From contig JAWMAR010000234.1 of the NCBI GenBank assembly GCA_036785375.1, positions 3,534,001 through 3,598,000 on the forward strand: a stretch of 64,000 nt of DNA, given 5' to 3'. Numbering within the stretch: position 1 is the stretch's first letter; the number at the start of each line of letters is the position of its first letter. Source of the stretch: Leucoraja ocellata. Taxonomy: Eukaryota. Position numbers and translations under genes: made by a program. Below the pieces are notes generated by a model, which saw nothing but the letters and a program-made list of their open reading frames with translations, did not search any database and had not been told where the DNA came from. Below, in pieces: positions 2,606-60,967 of this stretch.

Positions 2606-4344
2606 CACCCAAGTTTTCAATTGGTGTTAAAAGCTTGATTTAAAAATTCTCTTCATTGTTTTTAAATTATTCCTTTGTCTTATCCATCGGGTCTTCCTTA
2701 AATGTTGTAACCTTTCCAGATCTTTGCAGTCCTACTATTTTGGCCTCTTAGTTTTAACCAATTTTCATTATAGGCTTTTGTGGCTTTAGTTGGCAACCAT
2801 CTAAAATTCTGTAATTCCCTCCTGAAATATCTGTCTGGATCTCTCTCTTTCTCAAAGACTTCACTCAAAATATTTCCTTACTTATTCAGTCTCCTGATGT
2901 GATTCTGTGTCAAAGTGAGTCCATCTGTGCATCCATTTACAAGTGTATTGAGACTCGTGTATCAAAGACCAAATCCAAATTGAAGATAATGGAAGAAGTA
3001 TCAGAGATGGTCTAAATGAATTTGAGAGCAGGGTGGAAGTTATGACAAAGGTGGTGTGCGCACAGTTTTAATAAAGGTAGTAAGTCTAGTAATAGTTCTG
3101 TCACTGCTACTACAAGGAAAATGCAATACACAGTTTAAGAGATCAAAATTGAAGGAAGGAAAGAGCAAATATGATTGTACCATTTTCAAAATTTCATTTT
3201 AAATGATATATTACATTTATTTTGACTATCCTGAAACTACAATGCATCGGCGAGTAACAAAATTCAGTCAAAGGAGCGTTGCGTCTTAAAGATATTGAAG
3301 TGAATGCACAGTGAAAATAGGCTGAAATTCAATTGTTTTAATAATGAAACGTTTCTGAAAGCTTAAATATTTAAACGTTTTGTGAGAAAATAATACATTT
3401 TGCCTGGCATTGAGATGCCGAGTCAGTTTATCTCATGACTATTTAAAATGTGATTTGCTTTTCTTTTTAGTCGTAATTAGCCCACTTTCGAGTCTACTTG
3501 GCAAATTTCCAGGAAAACTTTGTTATGAATTTAAGGCCAAGCATTCCAAACATTAAATATCAGTGCCATCTCATAGCAATAATTACATATTAAAATTAAT
3601 TCCAATTAAACCAGAATATTATGAAATCTCATTCTTTCAAATTGTGGTCTAACTGAATGACTTTCATTTATCAAATTAGGTATCCTTTTGACTTTTCTAT
3701 TTGAAGAAATACACACCACCATGCAATTAATTACATTGACTGTAATTGATGTAATGGAATACAAAATGATATATAATTTATTAAATCTCTTTATTGACCT
3801 TTTGCATAGAACACTAGAAGCCTGCCATCCAGAGTGAAAGATTGGACTGGAATGCAGTCGACAGCAATAGCTGGTGTCAGCTGCATTATTTAACAAGATT
3901 CATTTCTTAATTGACACAAAACATGTGTTTGTAATCTCCAAGTCATGGTGCAAGTTCACTACTGTAGTATTAATATCTCGTCATGCCAAGTCGCTGACCA
4001 CTTAATTGTTCCTCATGCAAATGCAAAAATAGTTTAAAAAATGTTGTTTGCAGTTCATTAATAGTAGGCAGTAAAATAATCTATGAAATATGTTCTTCTG
4101 TTTTCTCAATAAACATTTCAATACTTGCGTCCATGCCCAGAGGACCAAATACAAATGCTTCAGAAAGGTTTCTATAAAGGTAATATTTTGTTCCTTTGTG
4201 AACTCTGACTTGCCCTTTAAATGGGCATTGACATCATCGTGCAACTGCACTTTTTTTTGTCTGATTTGTTTCAAAATAATTTCTTCAGAAATGCTTAAAA
4301 ACTGACAGCCTGTGTGTGCTATGTTTAAAGTAACATTCATCATA

Positions 4345-5772
4345 CAGTGCCCTCCTAATGTTTGGGACAAAGACCCATCATTTATTTATTTGCCTCTGTA
4401 CTCCACAATTTGAGATTTGTAATAGAAAAAATTGCATGTGGTTAAAGTGCTCATTGTCCGATTTTAATAAAGGCCATTTTTATACATTTTGGTTTCACTA
4501 TGTAGAAATTACATCAGTTTATACATAATCCCCCCTATTTTAGGGCACCATCATGTTTGGGACACAGCAATGTCATGTAAATGAAAGTAGTCATGTTTAG
4601 TATTTTGTTGCATATCCTTTGCATGCAATGACTGCTTGAAGTCTGTGATTCATGGACATCACCAGTTGCTGGGTGTTTTCTCTGGTGATGCTCTGCCAGG
4701 CCTGTTTTGCAGCCAACTTTATCTTATGCTTGGTTTGGGGGCTAGTCCCCTTCAGTTTTCTCTTTAGCATATAAAAGGCATGTTCAATTGGGTTCAGATC
4801 AGGTGATTGACTTGGCCACTCAAGAATTGACCATTTTTTTAGCTTTGAAAAACTCCTTTGTTGCTTTAGCAAGATGTTTGGGATCATTGTCTTGCTGAAG
4901 AATGACTCACCGGCCAATGTGTTTTGAGCCATTTGTTTGAACTTGAGCAGATTGGATGTATCTGTACACTTCAGGATTCATTATGCTAATACCATCAGCA
5001 GTTGTATCATCAATGAAGATAAGTGAGCCAGTACCTTCAGCAGCCATACATGCCCAGGCCATAACACCCCCCACCACCGTATTTCACAGATTAAGTGGTA
5101 TGCTTGTGCAGTTCCTTTTCTCCTCCATACTTTGCTCATGCCATCACTCTGATATAAGTTAATCTTCTTTTCATCTGTCCACAAGACCTTTTTCCAGAGC
5201 TGTGGTTGCTCCTCTAAGTATTTCTTGGCAAACTTTCTTGGCCATCCTATTTTTGCAGCTAACCAGTAGTTTGCATCTTGCAGTGTAGCCTCTGTATTTC
5301 TGTTCATGAAGTCATCGGCAGACAGTGGTCATTGACAAATCCACACCTGACTCCTTAAGAGTGTTTCTGATCTGTCGGAAAGGTGTTTGGGGATTTTTCT
5401 CTATTACAGAGAGAATTTTTCTGTCATCAGCTGTGGAGGTCTTCCTTGGCCTGCCAGTCCCTTTGCGATTAGTAAGCTCACCAGTGCTCTCTTTCTTTTT
5501 AATGATGTTCCAAACAGTTGATTTTGGTAAGCCTAAGGTTTGGCTGATGTCTCTAACAGTTTTATTTTTGATTCTCAGTCTCATAATTGCTTTGTTGACT
5601 TTCATTGGCACAACTTTGGCTCTCATATTGATAAACAGCAATAAAAGTTTCCAAACGTGATGGATAGACTGGAGGAAAGACTAGGGGTTGAGAGCTCTCT
5701 AATACCTACATGTAGGAGGCATTTAAACACACCTGACCAATTACAAACACCTGTGAAGCCATGTGTCCCAAA
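4345..5772 (-). mobile_element. Tc1/mariner DNA transposon, copy 2 (same family), right TIR mostly lost
   Basis: TA at 4343-4344 then CAGTGCCCTCC-TAATGTTTGGGAC; inner direct repeat ATGTTTGGGACAC at ~4554; similarity ends at TGTGTCCCAAA ~5772. Confidence 0.95.
4597..5626 (-). pseudogene. Tc1 transposase pseudogene, full span (~340 codons) with frameshifts
   Basis: MRAKVVPMKVNKAIMRL..paired-like HTH..GRPRKT; VLWTDE (D1); WPSQSPDLNPIEH (E); C-terminus LQAVIACKGYATKY*. Confidence 0.95.
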
Positions 5773-5929
5773 GATTTCCAACTTAAATGTTAAGTGTTTC
5801 TGTATTTCCAAACCAAAATAGTTTTCTACCCAATTCAGTCTGCAAGCAGTGTTCTCTAATTAATCACTCACATTATATCCAATTCATAATATGGGAACAG
5901 TTAGAGCAGTACTACCTGCATTGCAAGGT

Positions 5930-10128: not shown

Positions 10129-10545
10129 CTAGACCAAGTGCTGCTCCCCCAACGCAAGAATCCACCCCAGGTTTAAGAGAGGGGTAGAGAGAAAGAGAGA
10201 GAAGTGCAGAGAGGGAAGGGGGGTAGCGGGAGAGAGGGAGGGGGTAGAGTGGGGGGGAGGGAAGGTGGAGAGGGAGGGGGGTAGAGAGGGTGGGAGTGAG
10301 GGTAGATAGGGAGGGTGCAGCTGCCGCACGAGCACTGGAGTGGCCCTCCGTCCCGGAGTGTCCTGTCCTGTCTTGCGAGTGCATTTTGACGTCACTCGGG
10401 GTTTTTTTCCCGAAATGGGTGAGTTTTTGGGCTGTTTTTAAAACTTTAAACGATTAATAGCTTCGGAAATATAGGTGGGAATGTGATGGGAAGATGTTTA
10501 TCGCCTTGACGGGAAAAATGTGAGTACGATATGTGAAAATGATGA
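10129..10545 (-). mobile_element. Non-autonomous Helitron, 3' end present, 5' end missing
   Basis: CTAG terminus at 10129-10132 next to host T (ACTAGACCAAGTG, same as 53592); body 10385-10545 is homologous to 26330-26480 and 54300-54470. Confidence 0.75.
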
Positions 10546-12230: not shown

Positions 12231-12403
12231 GTGTAGGAAAGAACTGCAGATATTGGTTTAAACTGAAGGTAGACACAAAATGCAGGAGTAACTCAGCGGG
12301 ACAGGCAGCATCTATGGACAGAAGGAATGGGAAATGTCACCCATTCCTTCTCTCCAGAGATGCTACCTGTCCCGCTGAGTTACTCCAGCATTTTGTGTCT
12401 ATC
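12231..12403. mobile_element. Fold-back (palindromic) Penelope-derived element
   Basis: 62-bp inverted arms 12270-12331 and 12340-12401 with 4 mismatches and an 8-nt loop. Confidence 0.8.
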
Positions 12404-12842
12404 AACACACTTCTGGCTGTACATCCTTGTTCTGTAAATTTGAGGTGATCAAAATCTTTTCTGCCTGCTGCTAAGCTACCTCTGGTATGACTGTGGTGTC
12501 ACCTATGTTTGTTGCAAGTTAAGTCGTGCTTTAATTCTAAAATTCCCATCCTTTTTCATCACTTCATTCCCTTGGCTCCCCCAATCTCCTCCAACAACCC
12601 CACAACTCTCTGATAAATGTATTGATTCTTTAGTTCTGGTCTCTTGATCATTTGTGAATTTAATTGCTTCACCGTTGGAAACATTGGCAACAGGAGAGAT
12701 TGGGCCTCAAAAGTGTTCAGAGTTTTTGGTGCGGGAGCTATTAGTCTTTTGCAATGATATAAATGTTGTGTTTCATGACTGTTGGCAGACTAATTTCCCT
12801 CCTGGGATAAATAAAGTTCCAACATATCGTATGTAAGGTTCA

Positions 12843-13405: not shown

Positions 13406-13886
13406 TCCAGAGAGTGGCAGAGTCCAGCTGTTTGGACCAAGAGCACTAGAATTATGGGGAACATGAAACAAAGGGGAACTGAGACCAAGATAAGTGTGGA
13501 GCTGGGCTGGGTGTGTTTTTTTATCTTTTCCTATCTAAATAAAGAATTCCCAAGTCAGCTTTCCATTATTGTTCCACTTTGCCATCCAAGTACAACACGA
13601 TTGGATGGCAGACTAATGATCAAGAGACCTTTACAGAGGGTGGTGTTGAGACCATTACATTGCAGTTGTTAGCCAGAAGAGCTGTTTACTTTCTCTAAAC
13701 ATATTGATGAACTTGATCCAGGGGTTTTAATATCACAACAATAATCTCAAGCGCAGCTTTATTGAATCTGAGTTTTATAGTGGTTCTTTAATTCCAGGTA
13801 ATGTACATATGTAAATGAAAATCTCCCACTTGTAATGGTCGGATTTGAATTTATGCTCTGTCTCATTATTCCAGATAGATAAATAA

Positions 13887-13982
13887 ATCTGAAGAAGGGT
13901 TTTGGCCCGAAACGTTGCCTATTTCCTTCGCTCCATAGATGCTGCCTCACCTGCTGAGTTTCTCCAGCATTTTTGTCTACCT
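13887..13982 (+). mobile_element. Short Penelope-derived element with hammerhead core
   Basis: CTGAAGA-A-GGGTTTTGGCCC-GAAACGTT; flanked by direct repeat TAGATAAATAA (13876-13886 and 13983-13993). Confidence 0.8.
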
Positions 13983-14329
13983 TAGATAAATAACAAGCCT
14001 GGTCTAATTGGAAAACCACTTTTCTATCATATACCTTTGTTAGAAATACTGAAACATTAGTCTTTTGAAAATTGATCAGCTGGATTATGTGCTTGTCCTA
14101 ATTTGCTGGCTCAAAGTACAAAGATGGTGTGATTGGTTTTCATGCCAATTAGTTTGAAGTCTAGATGTTTTAAAATTGTGTGCTGTGGCTCAGCATGCTT
14201 TGGGTTATCTGTTACCTGGGGCTCCCGATACAGAGTTTCTCAGGACCAGAAAAGAAAATCATTATTGGTGATGTTGTGATACCAAACATCACAGTAACTG
14301 CCTCATGTCATAAAAATTAATAATGACCT

Positions 14330-14440
14330 CTTCAGTGGCCCTTAAAGCTGCATTGAAGTATTAGCTTATGGAGTAAGGCTTGAATCCACAATCGTCTGAT
14401 ATGAAAGAGAGGGTGCTGTTACAAAGTCAAGCTTGATACA
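14330..14440 (-). mobile_element. Ancient tRNA-derived SINE head (SacSINE1/Deu-SINE-like), decayed
   Basis: Minus strand reads TAACAGCACCCTCTCTTTCATATCAGACGATTGTGGATTCAAGCC, resembling A/B-box heads; assignment from recall. Confidence 0.4.
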
Positions 14441-16435
14441 AAAAATATAGAAAAAATATTGTTTAATGAATAGACTCAAGAAAAGTTGTGGGATGCATTT
14501 CACAGTGTGCCCTAGCTATAGCAAAGCTGTTATGATGCATCAAATCTGTTCAAGCTAGCGAAGTGTTGGCCTTGTTCCTGTGATAGACACACTCAACACT
14601 CGACTGTAGCAGCGCAAATACTGCCAATATATGGAGCTTGGGATTTGGCAGTGACTTGATTTAGAACATTGATACATACATCTACGTTTTTTCCAGAGCA
14701 TCCAGCAATAGTCACTGCTCAACTAATTATATTTTAGCCTTTCCAGATAGTGCAGATGTCCAACTAAGGTTCACTTTGTATGGTGCGAATTAACTGTTGA
14801 GCCATTCAATTGACAAGAGCTGCACTCAACCTACACCCAGAGTTGTGTTTTCATAAAGTCACCACAAATTCATTTGTATGATTATTTATCTTTTTCTAAT
14901 GTTAAGTAAATATAATTCCTGGGTGTAATATGAACAGTGCATGTGGGTCCAGGTACCCGAGTTGATTGGGAATTTCTAAATTGTAATCATTCACAGATGT
15001 CGGTACGTAAAGTAATTTCAAAGAAGGCATCCTATGGCTTGCTGAGGATGATGAAAGCTCAGTGTGAGATCCGTAGGAAGTAATTATTTAATAATCCATT
15101 TCCCAGATGTCCCTACATTTAAATTCAGAATAACAGCAATGTGATTCCAATAGGCATCTTAATTCTTTAAATATAACAAGATCACATTTATTTCATCAAC
15201 AAAATATTTACTGATGCAGCATCTCACTAATATCCAAATTGCAGAAGAAATCCACTTTAATTCTTTATTGTTCTGTGAGCATATGTTCTACAATTTCCAG
15301 TAGCCAAAATGATTACCTTTTCACAGTTTATATAAGAGAAACAATGGTTGCTTGTGTCGGCTTTTATTCTTCATATATGTTATCAGAGTAGCGTGTTATA
15401 AATTGGCTCTGTCCTTAATATTCATGTTTCCAATGGAAGTCACAAGGTTACAAAAGGAGGAATTTTCTCGCATTAGCAGCCCAAAGATGCTGAGACAAAT
15501 TTATAATCACGAAAAAGGTAATCCAACTTGCTGCTTTCATTTTCTGTATAACTTACTACAATATCATTTACAGTCCTTATTCTCTGAACAATCAGACATT
15601 TGTCAAACTATGTTTTCTGCATATTTATGGAGAAAAGAAAGTGGTTCTGCAAAATCAGCGTTACTACAGTGCCCGTGGTGAATCTTAGGATCTGGATATA
15701 TGTTTCAGTGATTTCAGTTATGGTTCCTTGATGGTGTGAGCTGCTTCATAACCTTTGTGAAGCCTGCTGCAATGTTATTTAAAAGGGATCTGCTCAACCA
15801 GGTCCTAGCCAATGTAATTTGGTGCAAGGATCCTGCCTCAGATACGTCCCTCAAATAACACCGTGCAGTGACTTAATAGTTTCTTCTCCTACCAAGCTTG
15901 AAAATAGTAACCTATGCCCCATGTTACTCCCCTCTTTGACTAATGATTTGATACCAAAATCCATCCCACCTCCAACCTACTGCACAATTCACCCCTACTC
16001 CTTCCTTCAACCGCCTTCTCTCAACAGACCCTTTTGCCCTTGTGATCTAACATGGCTTGGACCTTGCCCTGACTGCCCTTCCATTAAACCCAGCATCCAA
16101 CTGTGCGCAGATGCCTCCTCCCTATAACATGGCAACTAATGCCTTCCCACCACCACATTTCAGATATCCCAACATCTCCCCCGCTTCACCTATCTCTGAC
16201 TGACTCACTCTCTCACCACCCATCTTACAAACATTCTACCCTAACAGTTTCCTGCTCCCAGCTGCCCATCTGTAGCCTAACATTTCCAAGCCCCACCAAG
16301 GGTGGGCTCACCTGGCCTGTTCCCTACACAGCCCAACTCTCCACCATCGAGCTCACGAGATAATTCTCAGCCTAATAACCCCGCCCATCCCGTGCTTGAC
16401 CATTTCCATCCCTCCACGACTTTTCTCCCTTGTGT

Positions 16436-16955
16436 TGTCAAGTTTATTGTCGTGTGTCCCAGATAGGACAATGAAATTCTTGCTTGCTGCAGCACAACAG
16501 ACTATATTGTAAGAAAAAATACAGAACAGTACAGTTCAATACACACATAAATAAGCAGATAAAGTGCAATAGGCTGTTACAGTTCAGAGTCTGTTTGTTG
16601 GCGAGTTTAATAGCCTGATGGCTGTGGGGAAGAAGCTGTTCCTGAACCTGGGTGTAACAGATTTCAGGCTCCTGTACCTTCTGCCCGATGGTAGCGGAGA
16701 GATGAGTGTGTGGCCAGGATGGTGTGGGTCCTTGATGATGTTGTCTGCCTTTTTGAGGCAACGACTGCGATAGATCCCTTCGATGGTGGGGAGGTCAGAA
16801 CCGATGACGGACTGGGCAGTGGTCACAACTTTCTGCATCCTTTTCCGCTCCTGGACGCTCAAGTTGCCGAACCAAGCCACGATGCAACCAGTCAGCATGC
16901 TCTCTACTGTGCACCTGTCGAAGTTCGAGAGAGTCCTCTTTGACATACCGACTGT
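16436..16955 (-). mobile_element. Rex1/Babar non-LTR retrotransposon, 5'-truncated
   Basis: ORF 16584-17066 encodes TLSNFDRCTVESMLTGCIVAWFGN..IIKDPHHPGH..LPSGRRYRS..RFRNSFFPTAIRLLN, the typical Rex1 C-terminus; 3' UTR with stem-loop and GACAATAAA. Confidence 0.9.
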
Positions 16956-17268
16956 ACATCTCTTGAACATTCTCTTGAACATTCTCTCTTCATTTATTCC
17001 ACAATGTTGAAATAGTACATGTGTAAGCCTGACACACACCACCACCCCATTATCAGGCCTAAACATGTCCTATTCAACTTGAAAGTAATTATCAGCCAAA
17101 ATATTTTAGCCCACAACATTCTGCATCTCCTTGAGATCACCGATGAACATTTTGGGATATTGCAAATGTCATTGCAGCATTTTCTGCATTAGTTTTCATT
17201 ATTTTAATGATCCAGAATGATAATGAAGAATCTTTATTTTTAAAAACAGTGTTTGCTCGCGTGATAAG

Positions 17269-17379
17269 TTTGAAGAAGAGTCTCAGTCTGAAGAAGGGTC
17301 TCGACCCGAAACGTCATCTACTCCTTCACTCCATAGAGGCTGCCTCACCTGCTGAGTTTCCCCAGCATTTTTGTCTACC
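17269..17379 (+). mobile_element. Short Penelope-derived element with intact minimal hammerhead core
   Basis: CTGAAGA-A-GGGTC-TC-GACCC-GAAA-C-GTC at 17288-17315; degenerate TSD TTGCTCGCGTGATAAG / TTGCTAGTGTGATAGG. Confidence 0.8.
17288..17315 (+). ncRNA. Candidate minimal type I hammerhead ribozyme core
   Basis: Conserved CUGANGA and GAAA boxes, GC-rich helix II, palindromic ACGU helix III, GUC cleavage triplet; helix I is weak. Confidence 0.6.
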
Positions 17380-18202
17380 TTGCTAGTGTGATAGGTCATT
17401 TTGCTGTAATGTATGAAAACTCCTCTCACTGACATCATAACAGCTGCTCATAGGTGATTTACGTCTTGAACTCACCATGCAATGAAAGTACAATCAGTGC
17501 TTACCAGCTGATTTGTAGCTGCAAAGCTGCTTGGATGTGAACCGTATTCAAACTGATTTGTGCTCTGCACTTTGTAGACATGCTTCAGTGTCATGGCAAG
17601 CCATGGGTTAGGTTTTGCTGATTTTAAGAAACTGATGTGCAGATAGATTTTAATTTTGGTTCACTTGATCCTGATGAATATGAGAAACTGGTCTGTGATC
17701 CACTGGAACTATTTGCCGTGTGTGTTTTGTTGTAGAGCCAAGCCATTTTTGAATTGCTTTGTTTTTGCAGTGAAGTGGTGTGTATTTAAATTCATGTATT
17801 TAATGCCCTGCCTCTTAATTCCTGGAAGAACTTAGAAGAGCAATAAAATTTACCTGTTGATGACTCACAGAATGATTTTGTAGCCATCCATTCTGACACT
17901 TTCCATTCATTATTTTTACATTTTATAATTTTTCGTGTCTGTATATTTCTGCCCCACCATGAAATGTTCCATTTTGCTCAGCCAAACCTGTGCCTTAAAT
18001 TATCTGAATGATGTGACCATGGAAAATGAATGAAATAGCATGTACTGTTTGAACCACATTCACCAGTGGCCATCTACTGTAATGCACATCAATATCACAA
18101 CATTTAGAACCTGGGATTTGACAATGGTGTACACCTTGCACTACCTTTTTAAATGTTTTTGCTTTTCCAGGATAGTAAACATGCCAGCTATTTCATTTGC
18201 AA

Positions 18203-18736
18203 GAGTATTGTGTGCAGTTTTGGTCTCCTAATTTGAGGAAGGACATTGTTGCTATTGAGGGAGTGCAGCGTTGGTACACAAGGTTAATTCCCGGGTTGGC
18301 GGGACTGAAATATGACAAAAGAATGGAGCGATTGAGCTTGTATACACTGGAATTTAGAAGGGTGAGAGGGGATCTTATAGAAACATATAACATTATTAAG
18401 GGATTGGACACGCTAAATGCAGGATTTTGGAGGAGTCCAGAACCAGAGGCCACAGTTTAAGAGTAAGGGATAGGCCATTTCGAACTGAGATGAGGAAAAA
18501 CTTTTCACACAGAGAGTTGTGAATTTGTGGAATTCTCTGCCTCAGAAGGCAGTGGAGGCCGATTCACTGGATGCATTCAAAAGAGAGTTAGATATAGTTC
18601 TTAGGGCTAGCAAAATCAAGGGATATGGGGAGAAGGCAGGAATGGGGTACTGATTGTGGATGATCACATTGAATGGTGATGCTGGCTCAAAGGGCCGAAT
18701 GGCCTACTCCTGCACCTATTGTCTATGTATCTATGT
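18203..18736 (+). mobile_element. CR1 LINE, 5'-truncated
   Basis: EYCVQFWSPNLRKDIVAIEGVQR..LYTLEFRRVRGDLIETYNIIKGLD; 3' end GGGCCGAATGGCCTACTCCTGCACCTATT plus (TCTATGTA) repeat tail. Confidence 0.93.
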
Positions 18737-20924
18737 AAATAAGCAACTGGGAAATGACCAAATAATCTCTTTGTATTTGGTATTTTACATTCGCAACACA
18801 GAATGCTCTATGCTGTTCTGAGCTTGCATCCGAAAAGGATTTAGACTCAAACTTACAATTTTCTGGACACACAAGATAAAGAATTGTTCTAAGCAAATTT
18901 ATAGTTAAACATTCATTTTCCCTCCATAGTCCCCATCTTATGTCATAGATGCTCCGACAGTGGTACAATCACCCTCGTACCACGTGCTGGTAGATTTCTC
19001 TCTCTTACCCAGAAAACTGCAATTAGGAAAGATGAGCATTAGTGAGATGGCCCTCTGGCTTCTAAAACTTTTGCCTACAGATGTTTGAAGCTAAATTTAA
19101 CCTGCTATTCATCATCAAAGTACACCCGATATGATTCCATGTGTTATTTCCATTTCCTGCAGCAGCCACCATTATAACCACTTGAGATTAGCTTTGGATG
19201 CCAAATTACGATCAGTTTTGTGTTGTGGTTTTGGTCCACCAGGAGCAGAGCTTGAGATTGCTGTAGTTTATTTCATCAAGGACGCTTATGAACTGACAGA
19301 GATTTGGGGGGGTGGGATTCATTGTACGTCTCAGCTGGATTGGAAATCCATATCTCATGGGATGGAGCAGAACCTTGTATAATTGATTGTCACATACGTA
19401 GCAAGTTTTTCGAAGGGTATCTTTGTTAAGGAGTATCTTTTCTAAGTAAATGAATACAGTCTATTACCATAATATTGATGGTCACTTTTTTGGCTTGGAT
19501 TGCATTTTAATTTCCCCATGTCATTTATCTGATATTTAAATGAAGTGTTGTGCAGAAAATTGTTTAAGAAGTAAATGGAAAATATAATTTATGACATTTG
19601 TTATGGGCAAGCAATATATTAAGATTCAGACCCTTTCTCAGTTCCTTGAAGGAGAGAATATAAATGTGAAAAATTTATTGCCTGAGAGAAGAAGTTATTT
19701 AAGCTGCAAAAACAAAATTGTAAATCTTTGAGAAAAAGGCTTTTAATGTACCCTTGATGCATTAATCTTGCATTCGCATATATACGTCAGATTTGTGAAT
19801 CGTTCCTGCAGCTCGTCAGTCTCCAGATAGCAGAAGAGGAATTTATGCAGTCAATGCTAAACAAGAAAACAGGAGCTGTACTATATCAGCAAGTAACTGG
19901 GTTCTGGCATGACAGCTCAGTCTTCCTACAGACCATCCAAAATACAATATGAACATGCAAGAAAGCGATCTGAAAATACCTTCCTATACACTGTGCCTGT
20001 TTCAACATCATAGTTTAGCCTAAACATGTTGTCACGACCCCTTTGGTTCCAATCCCACATCCACTTAGTTTCTTGGGAGAAGCAAAAAGATGAAGAAAAA
20101 TGAATTTTCAGAACAAAAAATGTTAATAAATCAACTACTGATTAGAGATTGAAATTACACGTGCCCCCAATGTTTTAATTTATTTGAAATGAGAAAAGAC
20201 ATTCGGAAATCTTCAAAGACATAAAAAATGAACAATTGATTTTGTAACTGTTCGGCATAATTGTTATAAATGTATTAAGAATTTGTATCTTTTGCTGGAT
20301 TATCAGTGAACTCTTGATGGTAAATTTGAACAACTGCATTTGTGGTACCAGTCTCGATACTGGACTCAGTCATTTAACTTTCAGGCATTCGAAATTGGTT
20401 TAAAAAGAAATTGGGATAAGACCCTGGTGGAATTGAGCCTGTGATGATCAATTTGCAATTAAAACAACGTATGAGAAATACTGGGTCTTTTTACATCTGT
20501 GAAATGAGAAACAAGATTTAACACTTCACCAACTTTTCGTAAGATTGTTTTATAATTTCAGTATCTGTACACTATTTCTACTTTCTCGGGTGTGAAGTAT
20601 TTGCTTCTGCATTGGTACACTTTCAGTAACAGAGAAACTTTGGTGATCAGATGCTTTCTAAAGCATTTTCTTGTTGCAATCAATTTGACCGCCACATATT
20701 TGCTTTCAGTGGACAAACTACATGACAAAACACAACAGCTGTTCCCGTGGAACAGGGAAATGTAGCAGATCTGAAATATAGAACTATATCGAAGCAAATC
20801 CATATGCAAAATATAATAATGTCTTCTTTAATACAGTAATTCGTTAACAATCAATTAGTTACTTGATTAGAAAGTTACAGATACCTTTGCCAATAATTTC
20901 TACAGGCATTCACTCAAACTCTTA

Positions 20925-21175
20925 CAGAGACCCAGGTTCGATCCTGACTATGGGTGCTGTCGGTAAAGAGTTTGTTCGTTCTCACTGTAACCGCAAGGGT
21001 TTTCTCTGGGTGCTTTGGTTTCTTCCCACACTCCAAAGACGTACAGGTTTGTAGGTTAATTGGCTTCAGTAAAATTATCCCTAGTGTGTAGGATAGTGTT
21101 CGTGTATGAGGTGATCACTGGTCGGCGCAGACTCAGTGGGTTGAAGGGCCTGTATCTCTAAAATCTAAAAAGTAA
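20925..21175 (+). mobile_element. tRNA-derived V-SINE (HE1-like), 5'-truncated
   Basis: B-box GGTTCGATCC, central GAGTTTG..TTCTC..GGTTTC.TCCCACACTCCAAAGACGT domain, CR1-like tail GGGTTGAAGGGCCTG..TCTCTAAA; homologous to 61344-61655. Confidence 0.85.
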
Positions 21176-21329
21176 AAGTCTAGACAGCGGCTTAAACACA
21201 TTCAGAAAGTTCTGCCGATCAGTAAAAGGTCCAGGGAAATTCTGTTCCTTTAAGCCTGTTATAGGTGTTAACCCGGTTATCAAAGTCAGTGTAAATACAC
21301 AGGGAAAGTAAGGTGTGTGTATGCCAAAC

Positions 21330-21480
21330 TATACAATACAATACAATACAACAATACAATACAATTTATTTGTCGTTTGGACCCCGTTGAGGTCCAAACG
21401 AAATGTCGTTTCTGCAGTCAGACATACAAAACGAAAAAGACCCAAGACACAATGCAATTTACACAAACATCCTTCACAGC
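21330..21480 (-). mobile_element. 3' end of the GC-rich non-autonomous retroelement family seen at 31931
   Basis: (TACAA)n tail, TTTATTTGTCG, hairpin TTTGGACC..GGTCCAAA, GACCCAAGACACAA. Confidence 0.75.
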
Positions 21481-21635
21481 TTCACACATTCTTAAAACTC
21501 AGAATAACCTGCAAATGGTTTCAATAATACAACAATGTTGCAAAAATAATCTTATACTGTACCTATAAAACCGCTCAGTAAAACACATCAATCATGGCCA
21601 CTATTTCAAAGGCATTGAATAAATAAATCCCTCTT

Positions 21636-21785
21636 AGGTAGACAAAAATGCTGGAGAAACTGAAGAAGGGTCTCGACCCGAAACATTGCCTATTCCTTCG
21701 CTCCATAGATGCTGCCTCACCCGCTGAGTTTCTCCAGCATTTTTGTCTACCTTTGATTTTTCCAGCATCTGCAGTTCTTTCTTAA
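21636..21785 (+). mobile_element. Penelope-derived element with 26-bp inverted repeat enclosing a hammerhead-like core
   Basis: AGGTAGACAAAAATGCTGGAGAAACT (21636-21661) is perfectly inverted at 21727-21752; CTGAAGAAGGGTCTCGACCCGAAAC lies between. Confidence 0.8.
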
Positions 21786-21984
21786 AAATAAATTCCTTTA
21801 TCATATTACATAGCAACACAGAAATTTGGAAGGAAGTCTGATAATAAATTCTGTTTATTTAAAGGGAGCTGTGGCAGCATGTTCACTACCCCCTGACATT
21901 TCCACCTGAGAAAAGAATTCTGACGACGTATGTTATGCTCTCAATTTACAAACTTCGGTCAGTGTTCCCTCAACCTCCAACACT

Positions 21985-22270
21985 ACAGAGAATTCAATGT
22001 GAGGTTTTCCAGCCTCTCCTCATAACCGTTACACTCTAACCCATGCAGCATCCTGGTAAGCCTCTCCAAACGCTGTACATCCATCCTATAAAGTGCAGTG
22101 GGATCATGGGTCCAAGTTTTTAGCTCTGCAAAAGTGGCAGCACAAGGTAGAGAAAGTGTGGTATGCTTGCCTTCACTGATGGGCATTGAGTATAAGAATT
22201 CACGTTTCAACTTTATATAACTTTTGGTTTGGCTGCATTTGGAATATTATGTGCAGTTTGGATTGCCCAG
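21985..22270. mobile_element. Two decayed CR1 fragments in opposite orientations
   Basis: Minus: VQRLERLTRMLHGLECNGYEERL; plus: GGGCATTGAGTATAAG..TGGAATATTATGTGCAGTTTGG (LEYYVQF-like). Confidence 0.6.
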
Positions 22271-22623
22271 AGAATGAAATAAGGAAAAGGGAGGACAGAT
22301 GAAGGAATCTGTTATATACTGTAGCACCCTTCATTTCACTGCTCTATATCTGCCCTTTGTTCGTGCCCTGGAACTAACTCCCCAGGCCCACACAGCTTCC
22401 TGTTACCTCAAGGCCTCCTAGCTATAGCCATTCTGTAATGTTGAGCAGTTTGCAAGTGGTGACCAGGTCTCTTGCAGCACAAACTGACTTCTCACCTGCA
22501 GATTAGCATAAAACAGAAGTTCGGGACTGCAGACAAATGTGAAAAAAAGAAACTGAGTATGGGAATGGGAGGAAAAAAAGTTGGATGATTTACAGCAGCT
22601 ACTAACGTTTTCGCTCTTTCCTG

Positions 22624-22722
22624 GTTCTGACAAAGGGCCTTCAAACTGAAGTTAACTTCACCTCTCTTACAACAGGTACTGCCTAACCTGCTGAGTGTTT
22701 TCAACATTTTCTGTTTTTATAC
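22624..22722 (+). mobile_element. Older Penelope-derived short element
   Basis: GTTCTGACAAAGGG..CTGAAGTTAAC..TACTGCCTAACCTGCTGAGTGTTTTCAACATTTTCTGTTTTTAT. Confidence 0.55.
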
Positions 22723-23481
22723 CAAGAGTATGTATATCTTTCACACTTGGCCCACTGCATTTTATTGGTCAGCATTTTTACTTTCAGCATTTTCACCGAT
22801 ACGTTCTACCAAGTTATGCATTTGCTGAAAATATTCAATTTCTTAAGAAAAGTACTAATTGCCTCCTGCGTTGTGCCATGTTTGCTGAATGTTCTGTCAT
22901 CACTGCTTGAGCTACATTTACACATGCTACTTTCTTCATTCTGTGGGGTTCATTCTGCTATTTTTGTGAGTTCACTTTGTCGTCGGCGATTTGGGCAAAT
23001 CTATTGGTAGAATTAAGTAAAGCATTCTTTTTCTGCTATAAACACAGAAGCAAAGTAATTATTTAACATATCTATCATTTCCTTATTTTCAATTATAAAT
23101 GTTGCTTTTTTGACCTAATATCCACTAACCATCCTCTTTTCCCGAATAAATATAAAAGTTTTTGTGTTGAATTTCACATCTGCTGCAAGTTTCTTTTCAT
23201 GGTTCTCTTTATAAATCTCATCTTACATAGCTTTCACTCCCTTGTGCTGTATCTTTTTAGTTTTATGTTGTTCTTTACATCTTTGGTTATCTGAGACTGT
23301 TCATTTTGGCAAGTAGAGCTATTTTCATTTAAAGGTTATAAAATTGTTTTGAAAATATAACATTTCTTTTTTTTCTACATCTTTCCCATTCCTTTGGTCA
23401 TTTTACTCTTTCACAAGTTTTCCAGTTGACCATGAACTGTCTATTTTTTCCTGTCGACGCTGGACCATGGCACCTTAATCG

Positions 23482-26204: not shown

Positions 26205-26600
26205 TCTATATAACTAAAACTCTCATCTTGTTTGTGTGTATGCATATATGTGTGTGTGGGTGTGTGTCATCTGGGCACAATCTGCTTGATTCTCATTTCC
26301 TTACAATTGCTAGGCCACAGCCTTCCCAATATCACACATTCTACTCACATTTTTCCCCACGAGGCGATAAATGTCTTCCCGTCGCATTCCCACATATATC
26401 CGAACTTTTTAACCCTTTAAAGTTTTAAAAACAGCCCAAAAACTCACCCATTTCGGGGAAAAAAACCCCGAGTGACGTCACAATGTCCGTCCGGGAGGGA
26501 GGGGCACACCAGCTCACCCGAGTGACGTCACAATACACTCGCGAAGCAGTACGGGGCACAGCGGCTGCCGGCGCCCAACACCTGGTGGCACCGCATACTC
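26205..26600 (+). mobile_element. Non-autonomous Helitron, 5' portion
   Basis: Host A then TCTATATAACTAAAA (Helitron-type 5' TC end); body homologous to the 10129 and 53593 copies; no CTAG 3' end seen. Confidence 0.7.
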
Positions 26601-35624: not shown

Positions 35625-35716
35625 AAGGGTAGACAAAAATGCTGGAGAAACTCAGCGGATGAGGCAGCATCTATGGAGCGAAGGAATAGGTGACGTTTTG
35701 GGTCGAGACTCTTCTT
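35625..35716 (-). mobile_element. Short Penelope-derived element with exact 12-bp TSD
   Basis: CAAAATGGTTTG at 35613-35624 and 35717-35728 flanks an inverted copy of the 13887-type element. Confidence 0.85.
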
Positions 35717-38700
35717 CAAAATGGTTTGCTTACCTCGGGTAATCTTATAATGTCAGCGTTGTGTAAGATGCTGAAGGTTGTGCCCGTCTATAATGCCTGT
35801 GCCACACACCAGGGGTCTTCTTGTTTATGGTCCCTGGCATTCCATTCTTCTAAACCTTACTTCTAGTAACTACATTAGAAAACATGAGAAATGTTCCTAT
35901 TTCCGCCAAAAGTCTGATCCTGTAGTAATCGCACCTTGAGTTCTTCATTCCTCGTAATGGAATTCTGACGTGACAGTCTGCCAATGATTAGCTGTTTTAA
36001 CTTTCTAAACCAGTCTGACATTTATAAGTAATGCCACCCAAGGACAGTAGAACTGGTTAACATCTGGCCCATTCAAGCGGAAGTCCTTTCCTGCCATCAC
36101 CCAAGGGAAATAAGAATTTGTGTTGTCACAATATATATGACACTTGACTCGTGATTCCGTTGACTTGACTCTTGACTAATTCAGTGAAACAGATGTTCTT
36201 CCTCCATTCTATATTAATTTTAACCAACTTAGTTTGAACATTCACTCTCATGGCATTTCTTCATTATATTTATACCTTCCGAACTTCCCTTTGTCTTAGT
36301 TAATCCTATTTCTCTATTTACTGCTTCTTTCCAAAGTAAGACACCTGGCTTATCTCCATCACACCAAAATATGTTTATCCTAATAACTTCCAAGATTTAC
36401 ACAAATAACATAGTAAATACTTAATATCTTTGATCAGGACATGAGTGAGTTCATTTATAATATTATGTAAAGTCGATCATTTAGAATTATTGGCTAAGAT
36501 ATTCTTGAACAATTTCAAAAGGATGTTAATGTGGCGTTTTGTAAAGCTTGGATGTCTAGGTGTTGAGGAATTTATGGCCTTTAATAGTCACTCTCGTGTT
36601 AGAGTATTAGTTGCGAGATGAAAAGGATCTTGTACAAAGGACTCTCCACTTAGACTGGCCAAAACAAATTGGCAAAAGTAGTGTGGACAACCAGATCATT
36701 CATGACCATATCTTGGGCAAATGTATCATGGATTCAACCAAGTGCATAACATAGCCTGTGCTTGGCTGGTTCTATGATATAGTTGTCTAAGAAACATCTT
36801 ATAGGTTTGCATGTTAGGTTAAAAAAAATGAAATGCCGTGGATACTCAGCAGGCCAGGCAGCATTTATGGAGAAATAGACAGTTAATATTTCAGTTCAGC
36901 AGAATTGTAATAAGCATGTTGTAAATTCCAGAGAGTGCGAGGGGTAGAGAATATATAGGGAATATCTGTGATATATGTATTTAGTGCCCAGCTTAAGGAA
37001 ATGAACTCTTAAGATTTTTTCCCATCTTTGAAGCCCCCATAACCCTTCCAAGAGTATTAAAGGCTTCAAAGAGAAAATTGAATACACTCTAAAATATGCC
37101 AAACAAAGTGTCAAGAAACAACGATAATAAGATGCTTGCAACTCTGTTTAGAAGATAAATATCACTCCATATTTCCCTTCAGTAAGCTCTTATTTCATTA
37201 CTGCAACAAATTAAATGAGTCTGCTTTCGATATTTCCTTGGCAATGAAAGCCATATGCTTAAAAATTGATCTTTGGTTGGTAGTGCTAAATGTACTCTAT
37301 AGAATCATGAGCACATTACATTGCCTCTGAAGTCTTTTCCTTTGAAGTCAATGGAATGAATTTCAGAGGACGAATGCAATATGCTGAATTGACAATGTAG
37401 CATGTTTATTGCTATCAATCAATGAACTTTGTAGGCAATAGTGAGTTGCTTAAGTTATAACAAGCCCGATGCCTCATTGTACTGTTTAACTACTTCTTGT
37501 CTCATTAGAGTTGCATTTGGTGCTCTTTCTGAGCTGTCAGTTATTTAACTCGTGGTATTATCCAGATTTACCGGAAAACTTGTTACATCCACAAATTACA
37601 GCAGACTGATATTAAAATAGTCCTGGCAAGTCACAATAATATAGATGGGGCTTCCAATTTTGAAGAATGACGACTGCAAAAAAAGATGGGAGGGAAAGAA
37701 AAATCAGTTGTACAATTCAACTATGATCCCACGTGATCCCACTCCTAAATGCTTGTGATATCAATGAGAAAGGGATTGGTTCAGAGAAGCAGAAAGGGAT
37801 TGGCTGAAGTAATCTACTACAATGTATTCTGGGAAACTGGGAATGATTCTTTGCCTTACCAACTTGCATCGTTGACAAACTGCTTGGAGCAATGCAGTAC
37901 CATCTGGAGGGAATGTTAAACAGCTGTGGTATATGCTTCTAATAGTCTTCATTTGCATTCATTCATGCCCTTCAGACACATCCCATCCTCCTGCTGCATA
38001 GGAACTAATTTAAAAAATCTCTGCCTGCTGTTTTGAAAGGGTATTTCTTGCATCAGCCAATTCACTTTCCCCGAACATTGTTTCCCTGTGATAGACAAAA
38101 ATGCTGGAGAACCTCAGCGGGTGAAACTGCTGGAGGGGCTACGTTGCTCTGCTCCGCAAAACTGCTGTTGCGATTTTAATCCCTCTGTCATCTCAGAACA
38201 CAAGCAAAGGAAGGCAGGTATGACCTGCCATGTGTTGGTTTCAGAAAATGGGCGACAGTGAGCAGCATTATGACCTGCAGCCAGAAGTCTGGTACCATCA
38301 TATTTTGAATTGGAAAGAAAATCAGGCCTTTCAACTTTTTTGTGGAATACTTTAAAACAAGGCAACACAGACTTCTGCATGTGTGCATGCATGCACATAT
38401 GCCTACTGCGGACGCACACACACGCCTCCCCCCTCCCCATCTATACCTTCACACACAGCTGTCAATCTTCTCTATATAATATTGCATAAGTGAATAACTT
38501 TGAACAACAGATATTGGTCAGCAAAACCGTTGACAGAATTATTTTACCAATGTAATCAAATAATAACCAAAAGTTGTAGGAAACAGCTTTATGTTAAACA
38601 TCGTGCAATAGCAAAAACATTTGGACATACTAGTCTAGATAGAATATTACAAAAGATAAATAGACAACTTCAAATTACATGAACTTGTAAGAATTGCTTT

Positions 38701-40206: not shown

Positions 40207-40306
40207 ATCTGAAGAAGGGTCTCGACCTGAAACATCACCCATTCCTTTCTCTCCTGAGATGCTGCCTGTCTCGCTGAAGTTACTCCAGTATTTTGTGTCT
40301 ATCTTC
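40207..40306 (+). mobile_element. Short Penelope-derived element with near-intact hammerhead core
   Basis: CTGAAGAAGGGTCTCGACCTGAAACATC at 40209-40236 followed by the family body. Confidence 0.75.
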
Positions 40307-41448: not shown

Positions 41449-41735
41449 GCTTAAAAAGACATAACGTGTTAGTGTAACTCCGCGGGTCAGACAACATCTC
41501 CGGAGAACATGGATAGATAACGTTTCAGATCGGCACCCTTTTGCAGACTGATGTGGGGGAGAAAGCTGGAAGAGACATGGGGTCAGGACAAAGCCCACAA
41601 CAATCAGTCTGAAGAAAGGTCCCAACCCAAAAGATCAACAATCCATGTTCTACAAAGATGCTGGCTGATCCGCTGTGTTACTCCAGCCCTTTGTGTCTTT
41701 TTTTGTAAACCAGCATCTACAGTTCCTTGTGTCTC
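41449..41735. mobile_element. Fold-back Penelope-derived element
   Basis: Inverted arms ~41455-41550 and ~41603-41700; TTTATTTAAA direct repeat at 41439-41448 and 41736-41745. Confidence 0.75.
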
Positions 41736-43709: not shown

Positions 43710-44580
43710 AGAATAGAAAAGAATACAGGACGGGAACAGGCCCTTCAGCTCACAATGTTTATGTCGAACAAGATCCCATGTTAATCTAACCTCATAAAGC
43801 CATAAGTGATAGGAGCAGAATTAGGCCATTCGGCCCCTCAAGTCTACGCCATTCAATCATGGCTGATCTATCTCTCCCTCCAAACCCCATTCTCCTGTCT
43901 TCTCATAACCCTTGACACTCGTACTAATCCAGAATCTATCTATCACTGCCTTAAAAATATCAGTTGATGGCCTCCACAGCCTTCTGGGGCAAAGAATCCA
44001 CAGATTCACCACTCTCTGACTAAAGAAATTCCTCCCCATCTTATTCCTAAAGGAATGTCCTTTAATTCTGAGGCCATGACCTCTGGTCTCAGACTCCCAC
44101 TAGTGGACACATCCTCTCCAAATCCACTCTCTCCAAGCCTTTCACGATTCGGTAAGTTTCAATGAGGTGTCCCCCCCCCCCCCCCCCCCCCCCCCTAGTG
44201 CTGTCAAACGCTCATCATATGTTAACCCACTCATTCCTGGGATTATTCTTGTAAACCTATTCCGGACCCTTGCCAGAGCCAGCACATCCTTCCTCAGATA
44301 TAGTGTCCTCTGCCTGCATGTGATCCATATCCCTCCATTTCCTGCATATCCATGTGCCAATCAAAAAACCTCATAAACAGCACTATTGTATCTGCCACCT
44401 CCACCACTGCTCCGAGCATCGCACATGCCACTCTCCGTGCAAAACAAATTTGCCCCGTTCATCTTCTTTAAACTTTGCCCCTCACGTCTTAAAGCGGTGC
44501 CCTCGAGTCTTTGACATTTTCACCTTGGGGATAAAGGTTCTGACTGTCTACCACATCTATGGATCTCATAATTGATATAG
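43710..44580 (-). mobile_element. Nested CR1 LINEs: younger copy (43793-44300) inside an older copy
   Basis: Inner copy: RKDVLALARVRNRFTRIIPGMSGLTYDERL, RNFFSQRVVNLW, and CR1 tail; the outer tail at 43710-43792 resumes at ~44305. Confidence 0.85.
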
Positions 44581-48149: not shown

Positions 48150-48372
48150 CAGTGGTGAATCTTTGGAATTCTTTACCACAGAAGGCTGGGGAGGATATTT
48201 TTAGGGCAGAAATACACTAGATAGATTCTTGATTAGTATGGGTGTCAGAGGTTATGGGGAGAAGGCAGGAGAATGGGGTTAAGAGGGAGAGATAGATCAG
48301 CCATGATTGAATGACAGAGTAGACTTGATGGGCCAAATGGCCTAATTCTACCCCTATTCCTTATGACCTTAT
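48150..48372 (+). mobile_element. CR1 LINE 3' end
   Basis: GTGGTGAATCTTTGGAATTCTTTACCACAGAAGGCT..GATAGATCAGCCATGATTGAATG..GGGCCAAATGGCCTAATTCT; same subfamily as 43793. Confidence 0.85.
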
Positions 48373-48599
48373 AACATTCCAAACCAGAACGTCAAATCCT
48401 GTGTTTGTATGCTTCCTATCAAACCTTAAGGTTACATTATTTCACTCAATGTCTATTTAATGGTTTTCTATCCATAAACCACATTGGGGTGATTTGCAAT
48501 GCATCACATAATGTATGACTTTTCATTTTGTAATTTAGCACAATTGTCATTTTAACCTTATTGTTCTAAACAAAGTTTAAGTGGGAGCAGAGACCCTCT

Positions 48600-53339: not shown

Positions 53340-53921
53340 TATGTGGAAATGTTTGTTTCGGCCTAGAGACAAATGTCAGGAATAATCCTTGGAAGATAAA
53401 GCAAATTTAATTCAATATCTCAACCTAAGTTTAGAATCATGTTGAAAGTAGGGTCTTATTGCAGCTGTCTTCTTTTCCCAACTTGGCCATGACTGAAACA
53501 TAAAGAAGAACATTATAATTAATGGCTATCAAAGATTAAAATGAGCTCTGAGTTATTTACTGTCAATTTCTATGTTGCAAATTTATATACGACTAGACCA
53601 AGTGGGACCGGTTGGGTCCCATCCCCCAACGCAGGCGCGCGGCGTCACAAGGGAGGGTTGGTCCCCGAACGGAATAGTTCACCACTCACCCGTAGGTCCC
53701 AATACTCGCCATTCCCTAGAGAGGGATGGGTGGTAGAGAGGGAGGGGTGGGGTTAGAAGGAGGGGAGGCAGAAAGGGAGGAGGGTAGAGAGGGAGGGGAG
53801 TAGAGAGGGGTAGAGAGGGAGAGGGGCAGAGAGGTAGGGGGTAGACACCCCACCCCATCTCCCTCCTCCTCATTTCCCTCATCCTCCTCCCCTCACTCCC
53901 ATTCCCTGCCCCAGGACCTAC

Positions 53922-58458: not shown

Positions 58459-59993
58459 TCGCTTCTCATGTTCTCTCCTCCTCTTGAAATGTTGTGTCTT
58501 TTGAGACTATAATTAGAGTTTATGTTATCCATATTCAAATAATTTCACCAAGATGCATCGGTTAGTGAATAAACTGACTTTTTATTCTTACAATTAACAA
58601 TAAAAATGCCAGTCACTTAGCCTAAGCCCAACCCTACTAATTCAGCACAGAGAAGGGATCAAATCTGGGGATTTTCATCGTCCAGGCAGTGCAGCATCCA
58701 ATAAGGGAACAAATCAAGCCACACAATTATAATGTGAACTGTAGCTACTTTTTCTAAATTATTTTTGTTCCAAAACCCTTCCAGATATTTTATTACGGAA
58801 CTTTAGAATGCACCATGCCCCCATTTCCCTTCCATGCAGCTCAATCCAGACCAAAGCTCGCGGCATTTAAAAACAAAATTTACCTCATTTCAACAAGCAG
58901 AACATTGTAGGTTTGAGGTGAGAAAAAATGTATACTTAACCCAAACATAACTCCTTATGCTTTAATATCTTCTGGTTGCACTTACTTTAGATGGGATACA
59001 AATGAAATGATGAAAATTCAAGGGTTTGGAGAATAACTCTGTTAACAGTGGGATCAGTGACTGCATTTATTTGAAATTGAAATGTATTTGGTGACATTAT
59101 GAGCTAGCCTGAACTTCTTCCGGTGGTTAATGCTTTGCCATTCACTAAGTTCTCCCAGGAAAATTTGAATCAACCTAAGTGCATTACGGGGGCTGTTAGA
59201 AGCAAGTGTTTTCAACAGTTTGATTGGAATAGTAACAGATTATGGTTCTTTCAACTCTCACAGCCTCGTGTTCACTAATCTCACTGATAATTTGTCAGTG
59301 AGTCATGAACTTCTTTCCTTGCAGCATGGAAGGCAGAGCGAATGAATTAAAATAACTACATGCTCTTGACAATCCTGTTGAGACGGGTCCATTCAATTGC
59401 AGTAATGTTAGAGCTGTGCACAAGTGAAATTGATCAAGTGGCTGTCGAGAGACATATAAATAGATGCCAAGAGTTATGCACACAAGTATAGTGAGAAAGA
59501 AATGGAGACAGTCATGCAGGTAAAACTGTGAGAGATATCTATTCATGTAGACCATGATATTCATAAGACAGATGAAAGGTGAAATGAAGCACTGATCCTG
59601 AAAAGCATACAGAAAGTTCTAAAATATTTCAGAACACGAGAGAAACTGAAAACCTTTTTTTTTAATTTAAAAGCAAGAAAATATCCAGGAGTTTTAATAG
59701 TATTGACATGGAAAGTTGATTATACTTCTCTCTTCACAACTGCTGCTTGACCCTCTGAATGTTTTCCAGCATTTCTAATTTCATTTCATGCACAGAGGTC
59801 TGGTTCCATGGTTGGTAGAGCACAAATGGGCACACAGGTTATATTGTATATAGGATGTATTCACATAAACAACAAAGGATTTATACAGGGAATCGGTATG
59901 CACACTTTCACACGTAGACCTAGCAAAGGTATACACATGCACAGTCTTTAGAAGCAATTGGAGATTCATAAGCTGAACATGGATGTTTAGATA

Positions 59994-60167
59994 AACATAA
60001 AATGCTGGAGTAACTCAGCAAGACACGCAACATCTCTGGAGAGAAGGAACGAGTGATGTATCGGGTTGAGACCCTTCTTCAGTCTGAGATGCTGCTTGTC
60101 CCGCTGAGTTATACCAGCATTTTGTGTCTATCTCCAGTTTAAACCAGTATCTGTAGTTCCTCCCTAC
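59994..60167. mobile_element. Fold-back Penelope-derived element with 17-bp degenerate TSD
   Basis: Inverted arms; ACATGGATGTTTAGATA (59977-59993) and ACGTGGATGTTCAGATA (60168-60184). Confidence 0.8.
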
Positions 60168-60967
60168 ACGTGGATGTTCAGATATTAGTCTTGAAGTTCT
60201 GTGGGGGGTTTTCAGTCTCCAGCAGTAACTCTGTTGAGAGATTGGCAGAGACCCCAGGGAAATGATGTTAATGCTGAAAATAAGTAGTTTTGTCAGGATT
60301 TTGCTGGCCTCTGACAGAAGTTACAACAGAAGATATATTACTGAACTCAAACTTAAACAAGCTTCGCAATGCATGCATGGCCATTTTCCCTGAGTTTAAT
60401 TGAGTTTATTGAAAGAAACCATGAAAACCTTTTTGAAGAGTGTTGTATCAGTAAAGAACTTTTTTTTTTTGATGGTTAGTCACTGACAATCACTTGCTAT
60501 GGCAAAAAGTCGATTGGGAAATGTTGAAAGGAATATTCAAGAGCTTTTTGAATTAATCCACATACCACATTGTCATAAATGTGAATTGCATCCTGGCAGT
60601 TCCTGGGATGTGCAGAATTTATATGAACCCTTCAATGAAGAAATCCAACCCAAGTCATAATAGCATGAGAAAACAATTAGTGTTGTTGAACCCAACCTCA
60701 TCCAATTACTGCCTCAGGCACGTATCCATTTACCTATTATAATTTAGCTTGCTATCATAATTTTTCAAGTTGCCTGCCTTACATGGGCATTTGGCAGATT
60801 GAACTTTCAAAGTGAGCTGATCGAATACAAAGATTTTGGCAGTACAGAATTATTTTGTTAATGTTTAGAGTGTTTCTGATACAGATTCGGATATTTGCAG
60901 CACCATCGTTCATTCCAAATTGCTCTTACTGCAGTTTATTCCTGTCACATTAGGTATTAATTGGACA

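Follow-up and report, generated by a model that had tools for sequence, protein, structure and literature searches.

Small hammerhead ribozymes of Penelope-like elements (PLEs) are said to cleave as dimers, in work by Lunse et al. from 2017. Truncated PLEs are already reported to have left thousands of single, dispersed motifs in a survey of metazoan PLEs (Cervera and de la Pena 2014, PMC4209133), in which a minimal hammerhead ribozyme (min-HHR) did not cut as a monomer and cut weakly as dimers. PLE insertions are described as carrying a one-sided tail of 30-40 bp, inverted 5′-truncated partners, partial tandems, and target-site duplications (TSDs) of variable length (bioRxiv 2021.04.23.441226). 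For the PLE of the anole, the tail length is reported to equal the distance between two internal start sites of reverse transcription; the insertion substrate is uncut RNA, and the ribozyme requires protein (PMC11167929). Among retrozymes, monomeric dispersed derivatives have been described in a preprint that covers one chondrichthyan genome, and eight of nine frog retrozyme dimers in its account failed to cut (bioRxiv 10.64898/2026.07.22.740005).

The locus considered here lies in a window of 64,000 nucleotides from Leucoraja ocellata (contig JAWMAR010000234.1), to whose positions all coordinates refer. As proposed by a sequence-only reading that preceded this analysis, a hammerhead core, CTGAAGA-A-GGGTCTCGACCC-GAAA-C-GTC, is read at 17288-17315, and a descriptor scan finds its boxes, CUGANGA and GAAA-N-N-U-H, in type I order. 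The extra base is A17295, and the G10.1-C11.1 pair is formed by G17296 and C17307. An ACGU palindrome (17311-17314) takes the place of helix III, and the predicted cut falls between 17315 and 17316. Helix II had been given as 5 bp closed by a 2-nt loop. This is an impossible hairpin; therefore, the helix is read as 4 bp with a 4-nt loop, inside the published limits of 3-7 bp and 3-10 nt, respectively. The parts of the focal insertion are as follows.

17253..17269, + strand: left copy of the target-site duplication, matching 17380-17396 at 14/17 positions (p~0.008 vs 397 junction pairs drawn at random); its last three bases overlap the first bases of the element
17267..17284, + strand: extra, decayed 18-bp duplicate of the element 5′ end, comprising the helix I arm, the first half-core, and the start of helix II
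17286..17287, + strand: 5′ strand of the 2-bp helix I, whose other strand is 17316-17317; the pairs are G-U and U-A in the focal copy (descriptor stem I = 2)
17288..17295, + strand: core box 1 (C3-A9) and the extra A between positions 9 and 10.1, fitting the published min-HHR consensus
17296..17307, + strand: helix II, 4 bp with G10.1-C11.1 and a 4-nt loop; 17296-17299 pairs with 17304-17307
17308..17315, + strand: core box 2 (G12-A15.1), palindrome, and C17, in the architecture of PMC4209133
17316..17381, + strand: remaining body of the element to the first of two 3′ end classes, without tail
17380..17396, + strand: right copy of the target-site duplication

The 18-bp duplicate corresponds to a Tandem Repeats Finder row at 17267-17302 (period 18, 2.0 copies, 88% matches). 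Tail sequence continues behind 17381 in 800 RNA reads of the family. The focal insertion is shared with two related organisms, X5 and X8, in which contigs join each unique flank to the element; these contigs differ from the focal locus by 2 and 2 (X5) and 8 and 8 (X8).

A loose hammerhead pattern alone performs close to chance in the window (11 matches vs 6.4 expected). The published descriptor with helix I left free returns four family matches and one unrelated match vs 0.08 expected per 64 kb, a rate taken from 100 first-order Markov sequences. A family profile built from nine copies recovers 33 pieces, 18 on the + strand and 15 on the − strand, that cover 3.7% of the sequence; the reversed window yields none. 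This is in keeping with both the core at 17288 and the claim of a high-copy, non-coding family. Thirteen of the pieces hold a recognizable core, and same-strand cores are 1.0-11.2 kb apart. Rfam hammerhead models give no match, whether the whole window is scanned at an E limit of 1 or the local region at a limit of 10. The variants named earlier at 13889, 21660, and 40209 are present, as are decayed cores at 23487, 28024, 35719 (−), 41609, 48768, and 60082 (−). As variants, however, 21660 and 40209 stand only in part: ACAT replaces the ACGU palindrome in both, and 40209 has lost C11.1 as well. The better-defined relatives of the focal copy are listed below.

13888..13983, + strand: sister copy with intact core and palindrome, GUU triplet, 1-bp helix I, and perfect 11-bp TSD
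21636..21785, unstranded: sister insertion of a short inverted 5′ piece (−) and a full copy (+) with tail, 11/12 bp TSD, palindrome lost
35626..35719, − strand: sister copy with C3 and G12 changed, perfect 12-bp TSD
40208..40305, + strand: sister copy from a second subfamily, in which CpG changes have removed C11.1 and the palindrome
41449..41735, unstranded: inverted pair of an older subfamily, tail only on the + copy, perfect 10-bp TSD
59989..60168, unstranded: inverted pair, tail only on the + copy, 15/17 bp TSD

Older and more distant relatives of the family are seen at 22627-22716 (+), 58295-58418, 57134-57539 (−), and 36830-36898 (−). In the copy at 22627, GUU could pair with AAC as an alternative helix I of 3 bp; this single decayed copy hints that helix I was better in ancestors. 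Rfam matches of miRNA type at 12261-12409 are an inverted pair of the family element.

Scaling 13 cores per 64 kb to contigs of 1.7-2.1 Gb (two DNA runs) gives 3-4 × 10^5 copies, and scaling from the four descriptor-level cores gives ~10^5, both from one window; the family copy number is probably of the order of 10^5, as a rough figure. The summed contig depth of the core in X8 is ~6.6 × 10^5 times the flank depth, a ratio that is not a copy number. The little skate, Leucoraja erinacea, has the family too, since the repeat is read through in one of its RefSeq gene models (85% identity). In this model, annotated "beta-arrestin-1-like", ~40 residues from the repeat replace part of the arrestin fold; the stretch is likely a false exon, or else an exonization. 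In the 21660 copy, one reading frame crosses the core with no stop.

The structure of the insertions bears on their origin. With junctions placed by eye and a slack of ±8, TSDs of 10-17 bp are scored at p<0.01 in 7 of 14 units and at p<0.03 in 8 of 14 (vs 397 random pairs). Copies end either ~94 nt past C3 or ~30-40 nt later, and the tail motif occurs in 9 of the 30 matches that reach the 3′ end. Six inverted pairs with a 5′-truncated partner are found among the 33 family matches, and all six carry the ~30-40 bp tail on exactly one end. In DNA contigs, head-to-tail joints that go back 34-91 restart at 17281-17285. Many distinct partial tandems exist in the genome, the second unit restarting at −7 to −3, 34-50 nt after the first core; such short partial tandems, and not neighbors at kb distance, are candidates for natural dimers. 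Because no ORF was found, the PLE origin of the family is inferred from structure, which supports it well: the TSDs, inverted partners, and one-sided tails agree with the derivation proposed earlier.

Of 739 stop-free frames of at least 40 aa in the window, the 450 longest were compared with Pfam; no reverse transcriptase (RT), GIY-YIG, or host exon was detected among them, and the only matches were to Tc1-type transposase families and, weakly, to unrelated entries. Among the latter, an EFR3_ARM match at 36445-36618 was rejected, as it does not resemble an exon. A six-frame search with short PLE and CPEB protein motifs gave nothing convincing. Two protein searches with the 41-aa read-through from the 21660 frame returned no PLE protein; their results were the skate beta-arrestin gene model and three unnamed short chance frames. 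Pattern scans of viral and metagenome contigs gave 0 loci.

The capacity of these copies to cut appears poor. Out of 16 aligned stretches, four were dropped from scoring, 48768 for a deletion and 22627, 58382, and 25416 as too divergent or coreless. All 11 core positions are intact in four of the 12 scored copies, together with the palindrome in two, and with a 2-bp helix I in addition only in the focal one; counted by itself, the palindrome is retained in 5/12. The earlier estimate of a helix I of about 2 bp holds at 17288, the only copy to attain it in the descriptor scan, and not elsewhere, as most copies are without the 5′ arm. The published descriptor asks for at least 3 bp, which no match in the window reaches (2 bp at 17288 and 0-1 bp in the other three). 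The nearest other copy with core and palindrome lies 3.4 kb upstream and has a 1-bp helix I. Self-cleavage sites every few kb, with neighboring copies as dimer partners, had been envisaged, and these counts speak against them.

In the 77-nt ensemble, the pairing probability is 0.001 for helix I and 0.17 for helix II, and forming helix I is unfavorable by 2.5 kcal/mol for the monomer and by 4.9 kcal/mol for a two-strand dimer model, in calculations that ignore tertiary contacts and protein. Helix II is paired in 86.5% of cells over 13 copies with no two-sided change, and covariation over the same 13 copies is not above that of shuffles. Downstream of the core, only an invariant 4-bp hairpin was found. 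The hammerhead of the focal-family copies is thus likely inactive, which supports the caveat to this effect in the sequence-only reading.

Decay of the core points the same way for the inserted copies. Family-wide CpG change rates in X8 DNA, for pieces at least 80% alike, are 10.7% for the loop C, 11.5% for C11.1, 15.0% for G12, 12.2% for C15.2, and 16.9% for G16.2. Core CpGs, including that of the catalytic G12, a proposed general base (PMC6155905), therefore decay as fast as or faster than the loop CpG, and the expectation of a core better conserved than the rest of the element fails at CpG sites across the family. All changes within the motif are CpG transitions among the X8 matches listed. 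Non-CpG divergence in the window is 11/120 cells in the core vs 106/720 outside it (p=0.12, not significant), and a downstream non-core block is as conserved as the core (13/216 cells). Between subfamilies, the pattern is different: core and helix II are identical across three while flanking positions differ, which suggests selection in parent elements, although the downstream block is spared just as much. From these rates, inserted copies would decay neutrally, and the ribozyme probably mattered only in the parent element.

The 5′ ends of copies bear on the state of the template. None of the 33 family matches starts in profile columns 28-34 around the predicted cut; copies start ~30 nt upstream of it, indicating that the template was uncut and still held the 28 nt upstream. 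Clustering of these ends has three candidate causes: a core, folded or bound, at which the RT falls off; a transcript that is itself short; or an acceptor-like CAG at −4 to −2. A spliced template as the source of the 5′ boundary (a pyrimidine tract and CAG before −1, cf. the end of a D. virilis intron) was considered and is not supported, the loose ends being mixed among those listed.

Taken together, we hold with good confidence that the locus is a decaying insertion of ~110 bp from the pseudo-LTR (pLTR) end of a PLE, in which the hammerhead is a passenger that does not cut in this copy. It is proposed that AT-rich DNA is nicked by an autonomous PLE located elsewhere in the genome, which would prime reverse transcription at either of two internal sites of its RNA, ~+94 or ~+126 to +130 from C3. 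The RT would copy through the uncut ribozyme and in most cases halt on reaching the 5′ core edge, so that a solo piece results, to which a second piece, inverted or in partial tandem, may occasionally be added. The ribozyme of the parent element may be active with help from the PLE protein, which is what has been reported for the anole; inserted copies would become methylated and then decay neutrally. Against the passenger reading, none of the 11 core positions is lost in the focal copy, which two related organisms share.

A rather unlikely alternative is that the family is independent: a non-autonomous, SINE-like element, mobilized in trans by a PLE, whose own 5′ start lies at the core edge. 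Its sharp 5′ boundary would then be a transcription start or a processing site and not the product of RT fall-off. With no RT or GIY-YIG frame linked to it, the family could be such a separate element. Eight of the 13 core-bearing copies begin at about −7 to +2 of C3 (by eye), mixed-sequence loose ends accumulate ahead of 17285 and 17286 in both the RNA and the DNA runs, and at least three subfamilies exist, all of which would suit this explanation. However, the other five copies extend 60 to ~200+ nt further upstream into a shared pyrimidine-rich sequence, and native upstream loose ends before 17281 and 17283 are among the largest classes. The truncation is therefore continuous with longer pLTR pieces. 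Accidental likeness, i.e., a repeat that merely contains CUGANGA and GAAA, is barely credible. The lack of Rfam matches, covariation no higher than in shuffles, and the unfavored active fold are compatible with it; yet every published core feature occurs in order, including the extra base, G10.1-C11.1, and the palindrome, at a descriptor expectation of 0.08 per 64 kb, and the motif sits in an element with independent marks of a PLE.

Cleavage of host transcripts by a retrozyme-like family, through neighbor dimers or short partial tandems and perhaps only with PLE protein, is quite improbable. It can draw on the intact core and palindrome at 17288, on the partial tandems elsewhere in the genome with cores 34-50 nt apart, and on RNA. 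The RNA sample is one raw polyA run (X11) from a related organism, designated C, of which ~6% was read; its strandedness is unstated, and its reads are not independent loci. The element is found in 7,340 of 7,335,232 reads, ~0.1%, 99% of which run on into other sequence. One orientation is ~11% rarer (2751 vs 3097), and loss of C11.1 is commoner in one mate direction (12.7 vs 9.2%, p about 1e-5). Loss of G16.2 is also skewed by direction (p about 6e-5) but in the opposite sense. These direction differences suggest that the library is stranded. In that case, cutting of half of the sense transcripts would bring G12A to near 26%; it is 16.7% vs 17.8% by mate direction (p=0.28) and 15.0% in DNA, so bulk cleavage is excluded on this assumption, and a small minority may be cut. 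Furthermore, the 7,340 family reads show no pile-up of molecule ends at any place on the element, and the depth drop across the cut is equal by mate direction (0.884 vs 0.879). The flanks of the focal locus have 0 reads, so this locus is not seen transcribed in that run. No run recorded as RNA is listed as containing 13500-23400, a result that favors neither view. The spacing of same-strand cores by kilobases, the window's lack of a tandem array of the element, and the single copy in 12 with core, palindrome, and 2-bp helix I weigh against retrozyme-like cleavage as well, as does the weak or absent cutting of the published min-HHRs and frog dimers cited at the outset.

A bolder extension is a long shot. 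Skates may hold one of the largest known sets of min-HHRs (order 10^5). The sharp RT stop would be the trace of a ribozyme that is folded and bound by protein inside the PLE particle. Whenever PLE protein is made, host transcripts would be cut by the minority of intact copies, chiefly by partial tandems whose cores are 34-50 nt apart, amounting to genome-wide RNA cleavage switched by a transposon. Cutting of host RNA in vivo by dispersed or tandem copies would, if true, be far more important than the passenger reading; the present evidence is against it.

The window also contains other elements. A compact HDV-like ribozyme candidate at 52512-52563 (+) has a core nearly identical to the mammalian CPEB3 model. 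It scores 28.2 bits with Rfam RF00622 (gathering 35; E 0.0024 on the window and 1.3e-5 locally). C52553 occupies the place of the catalytic C, P2 has 7/7 bp (52520-52526 with 52557-52563), and P3/L3 match CPEB3. P1 has 6 bp with one mismatch and a G-U first pair, and P4 is nearly absent. A descriptor derived from the site gives 0 matches in 30 shuffles, and the candidate is a single copy in the window. No ORF or CPEB exon was found near it, and it may be the 5′ end of a LINE.

Decayed transposase copies of Tc1/mariner type (Pfam HTH_Tnp_Tc3_2 and DDE_3) occur at 694-2053 and 4343-5776 (−), and ~220-bp repeats at 48151-48373 and 61388-61608 look like ends of this type. The pieces at 16443-17069 (−), 18442-18735, 43794-44087, 56344-56492, and 20925-21133 we take to be LINE-like 3′ pieces and a SINE-like piece; a 161-aa frame at 16587-17069 has no Pfam match. 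Another repeat family, with long G/A-rich and C/T-rich arms that fold into hairpins (10208-10541, 26278-26485, 53694-53926, and 54293-54510), is the source of the weak Rfam matches of miRNA type at 53.7-53.9 kb. An N gap spans 54511-54780.

No earlier description of the skate family was found in the literature listings examined, a weak negative, and Lunse et al. 2017 may list the family. The 56-motif alignment and the accession table of PMC4209133 contain no cartilaginous fish. The min-HHRs of metazoan PLEs in that study (Cervera and de la Pena 2014, PMC4209133) share with the skate family the core consensus, the extra base after A9, the G10.1-C11.1 pair, and the palindromic 15.2-16.2 without loop III, and they too are mostly single dispersed motifs; consensus and descriptor thus agree with the proposal of a minimal type I hammerhead of the PLE kind. 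Helix I differs, having 2 bp in the skate family (U-A and G-C in the majority, G-U in the focal copy) vs 3-7 bp in the min-HHR descriptor (PMC4209133). The 2-bp helix I min-HHRs of D. virilis, Culex, and Oikopleura, which appear there as atypical members, have two G-C pairs. The short skate helix II is, by look, closer to the Acropora Neptune and oyster entries (Fig. S3, PMC4209133) than to Poseidon/Xena. The copy number, probably and roughly of order 10^5, compares with thousands given for coelacanth and Xenopus in that study.

Copies of PAc, the Poseidon PLE of Anolis carolinensis (Frangieh et al. 2024, PMC11167929), likewise fall into two 3′ end classes, which lie 30-40 bp from each other on the downstream side of the hammerhead. 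They also derive from uncut RNA, and no RNA-seq ends are noted at the cut site. The PAc ORF starts at stem II, in contrast to the skate family, which has no linked ORF and is unrelated in sequence. The skate family provides a data point on the role of PLE hammerheads in that its copies, made from uncut RNA and with a 2-bp helix I, have become very numerous, as would be expected if insertion does not require cleavage. Its 5′-end clustering at the core edge is a small clue to how PLE reverse transcription ends.

Animal non-LTR retrozymes, as outlined in PMC7229834 and bioRxiv 10.64898/2026.07.22.740005, are likewise non-coding, PLE-related, and of high copy, with a type I hammerhead. However, they form tandem units of ~150-450 bp with mostly canonical hammerheads and are expressed as circles, whereas the skate copies are dispersed, ~95-130 bp long, minimal, and bounded upstream of the cut site. 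Two consecutive complete hammerhead units, the retrozyme criterion, are absent from the 28 Tandem Repeats Finder rows of the window, and Rfam and the descriptor find no canonical type I hammerhead (~6-bp helix I with loop 1-loop 2 contacts) there. The label "retrozyme-like" given by the sequence-only reading is not supported by the structure of the window copies because there are no tandem arrays and no canonical helix I and the copies do not start at the cut site. The family resembles the dispersed min-HHR remnants of canonical PLEs and is not a non-LTR retrozyme as defined, and it extends the known min-HHR motif to a skate repeat family.
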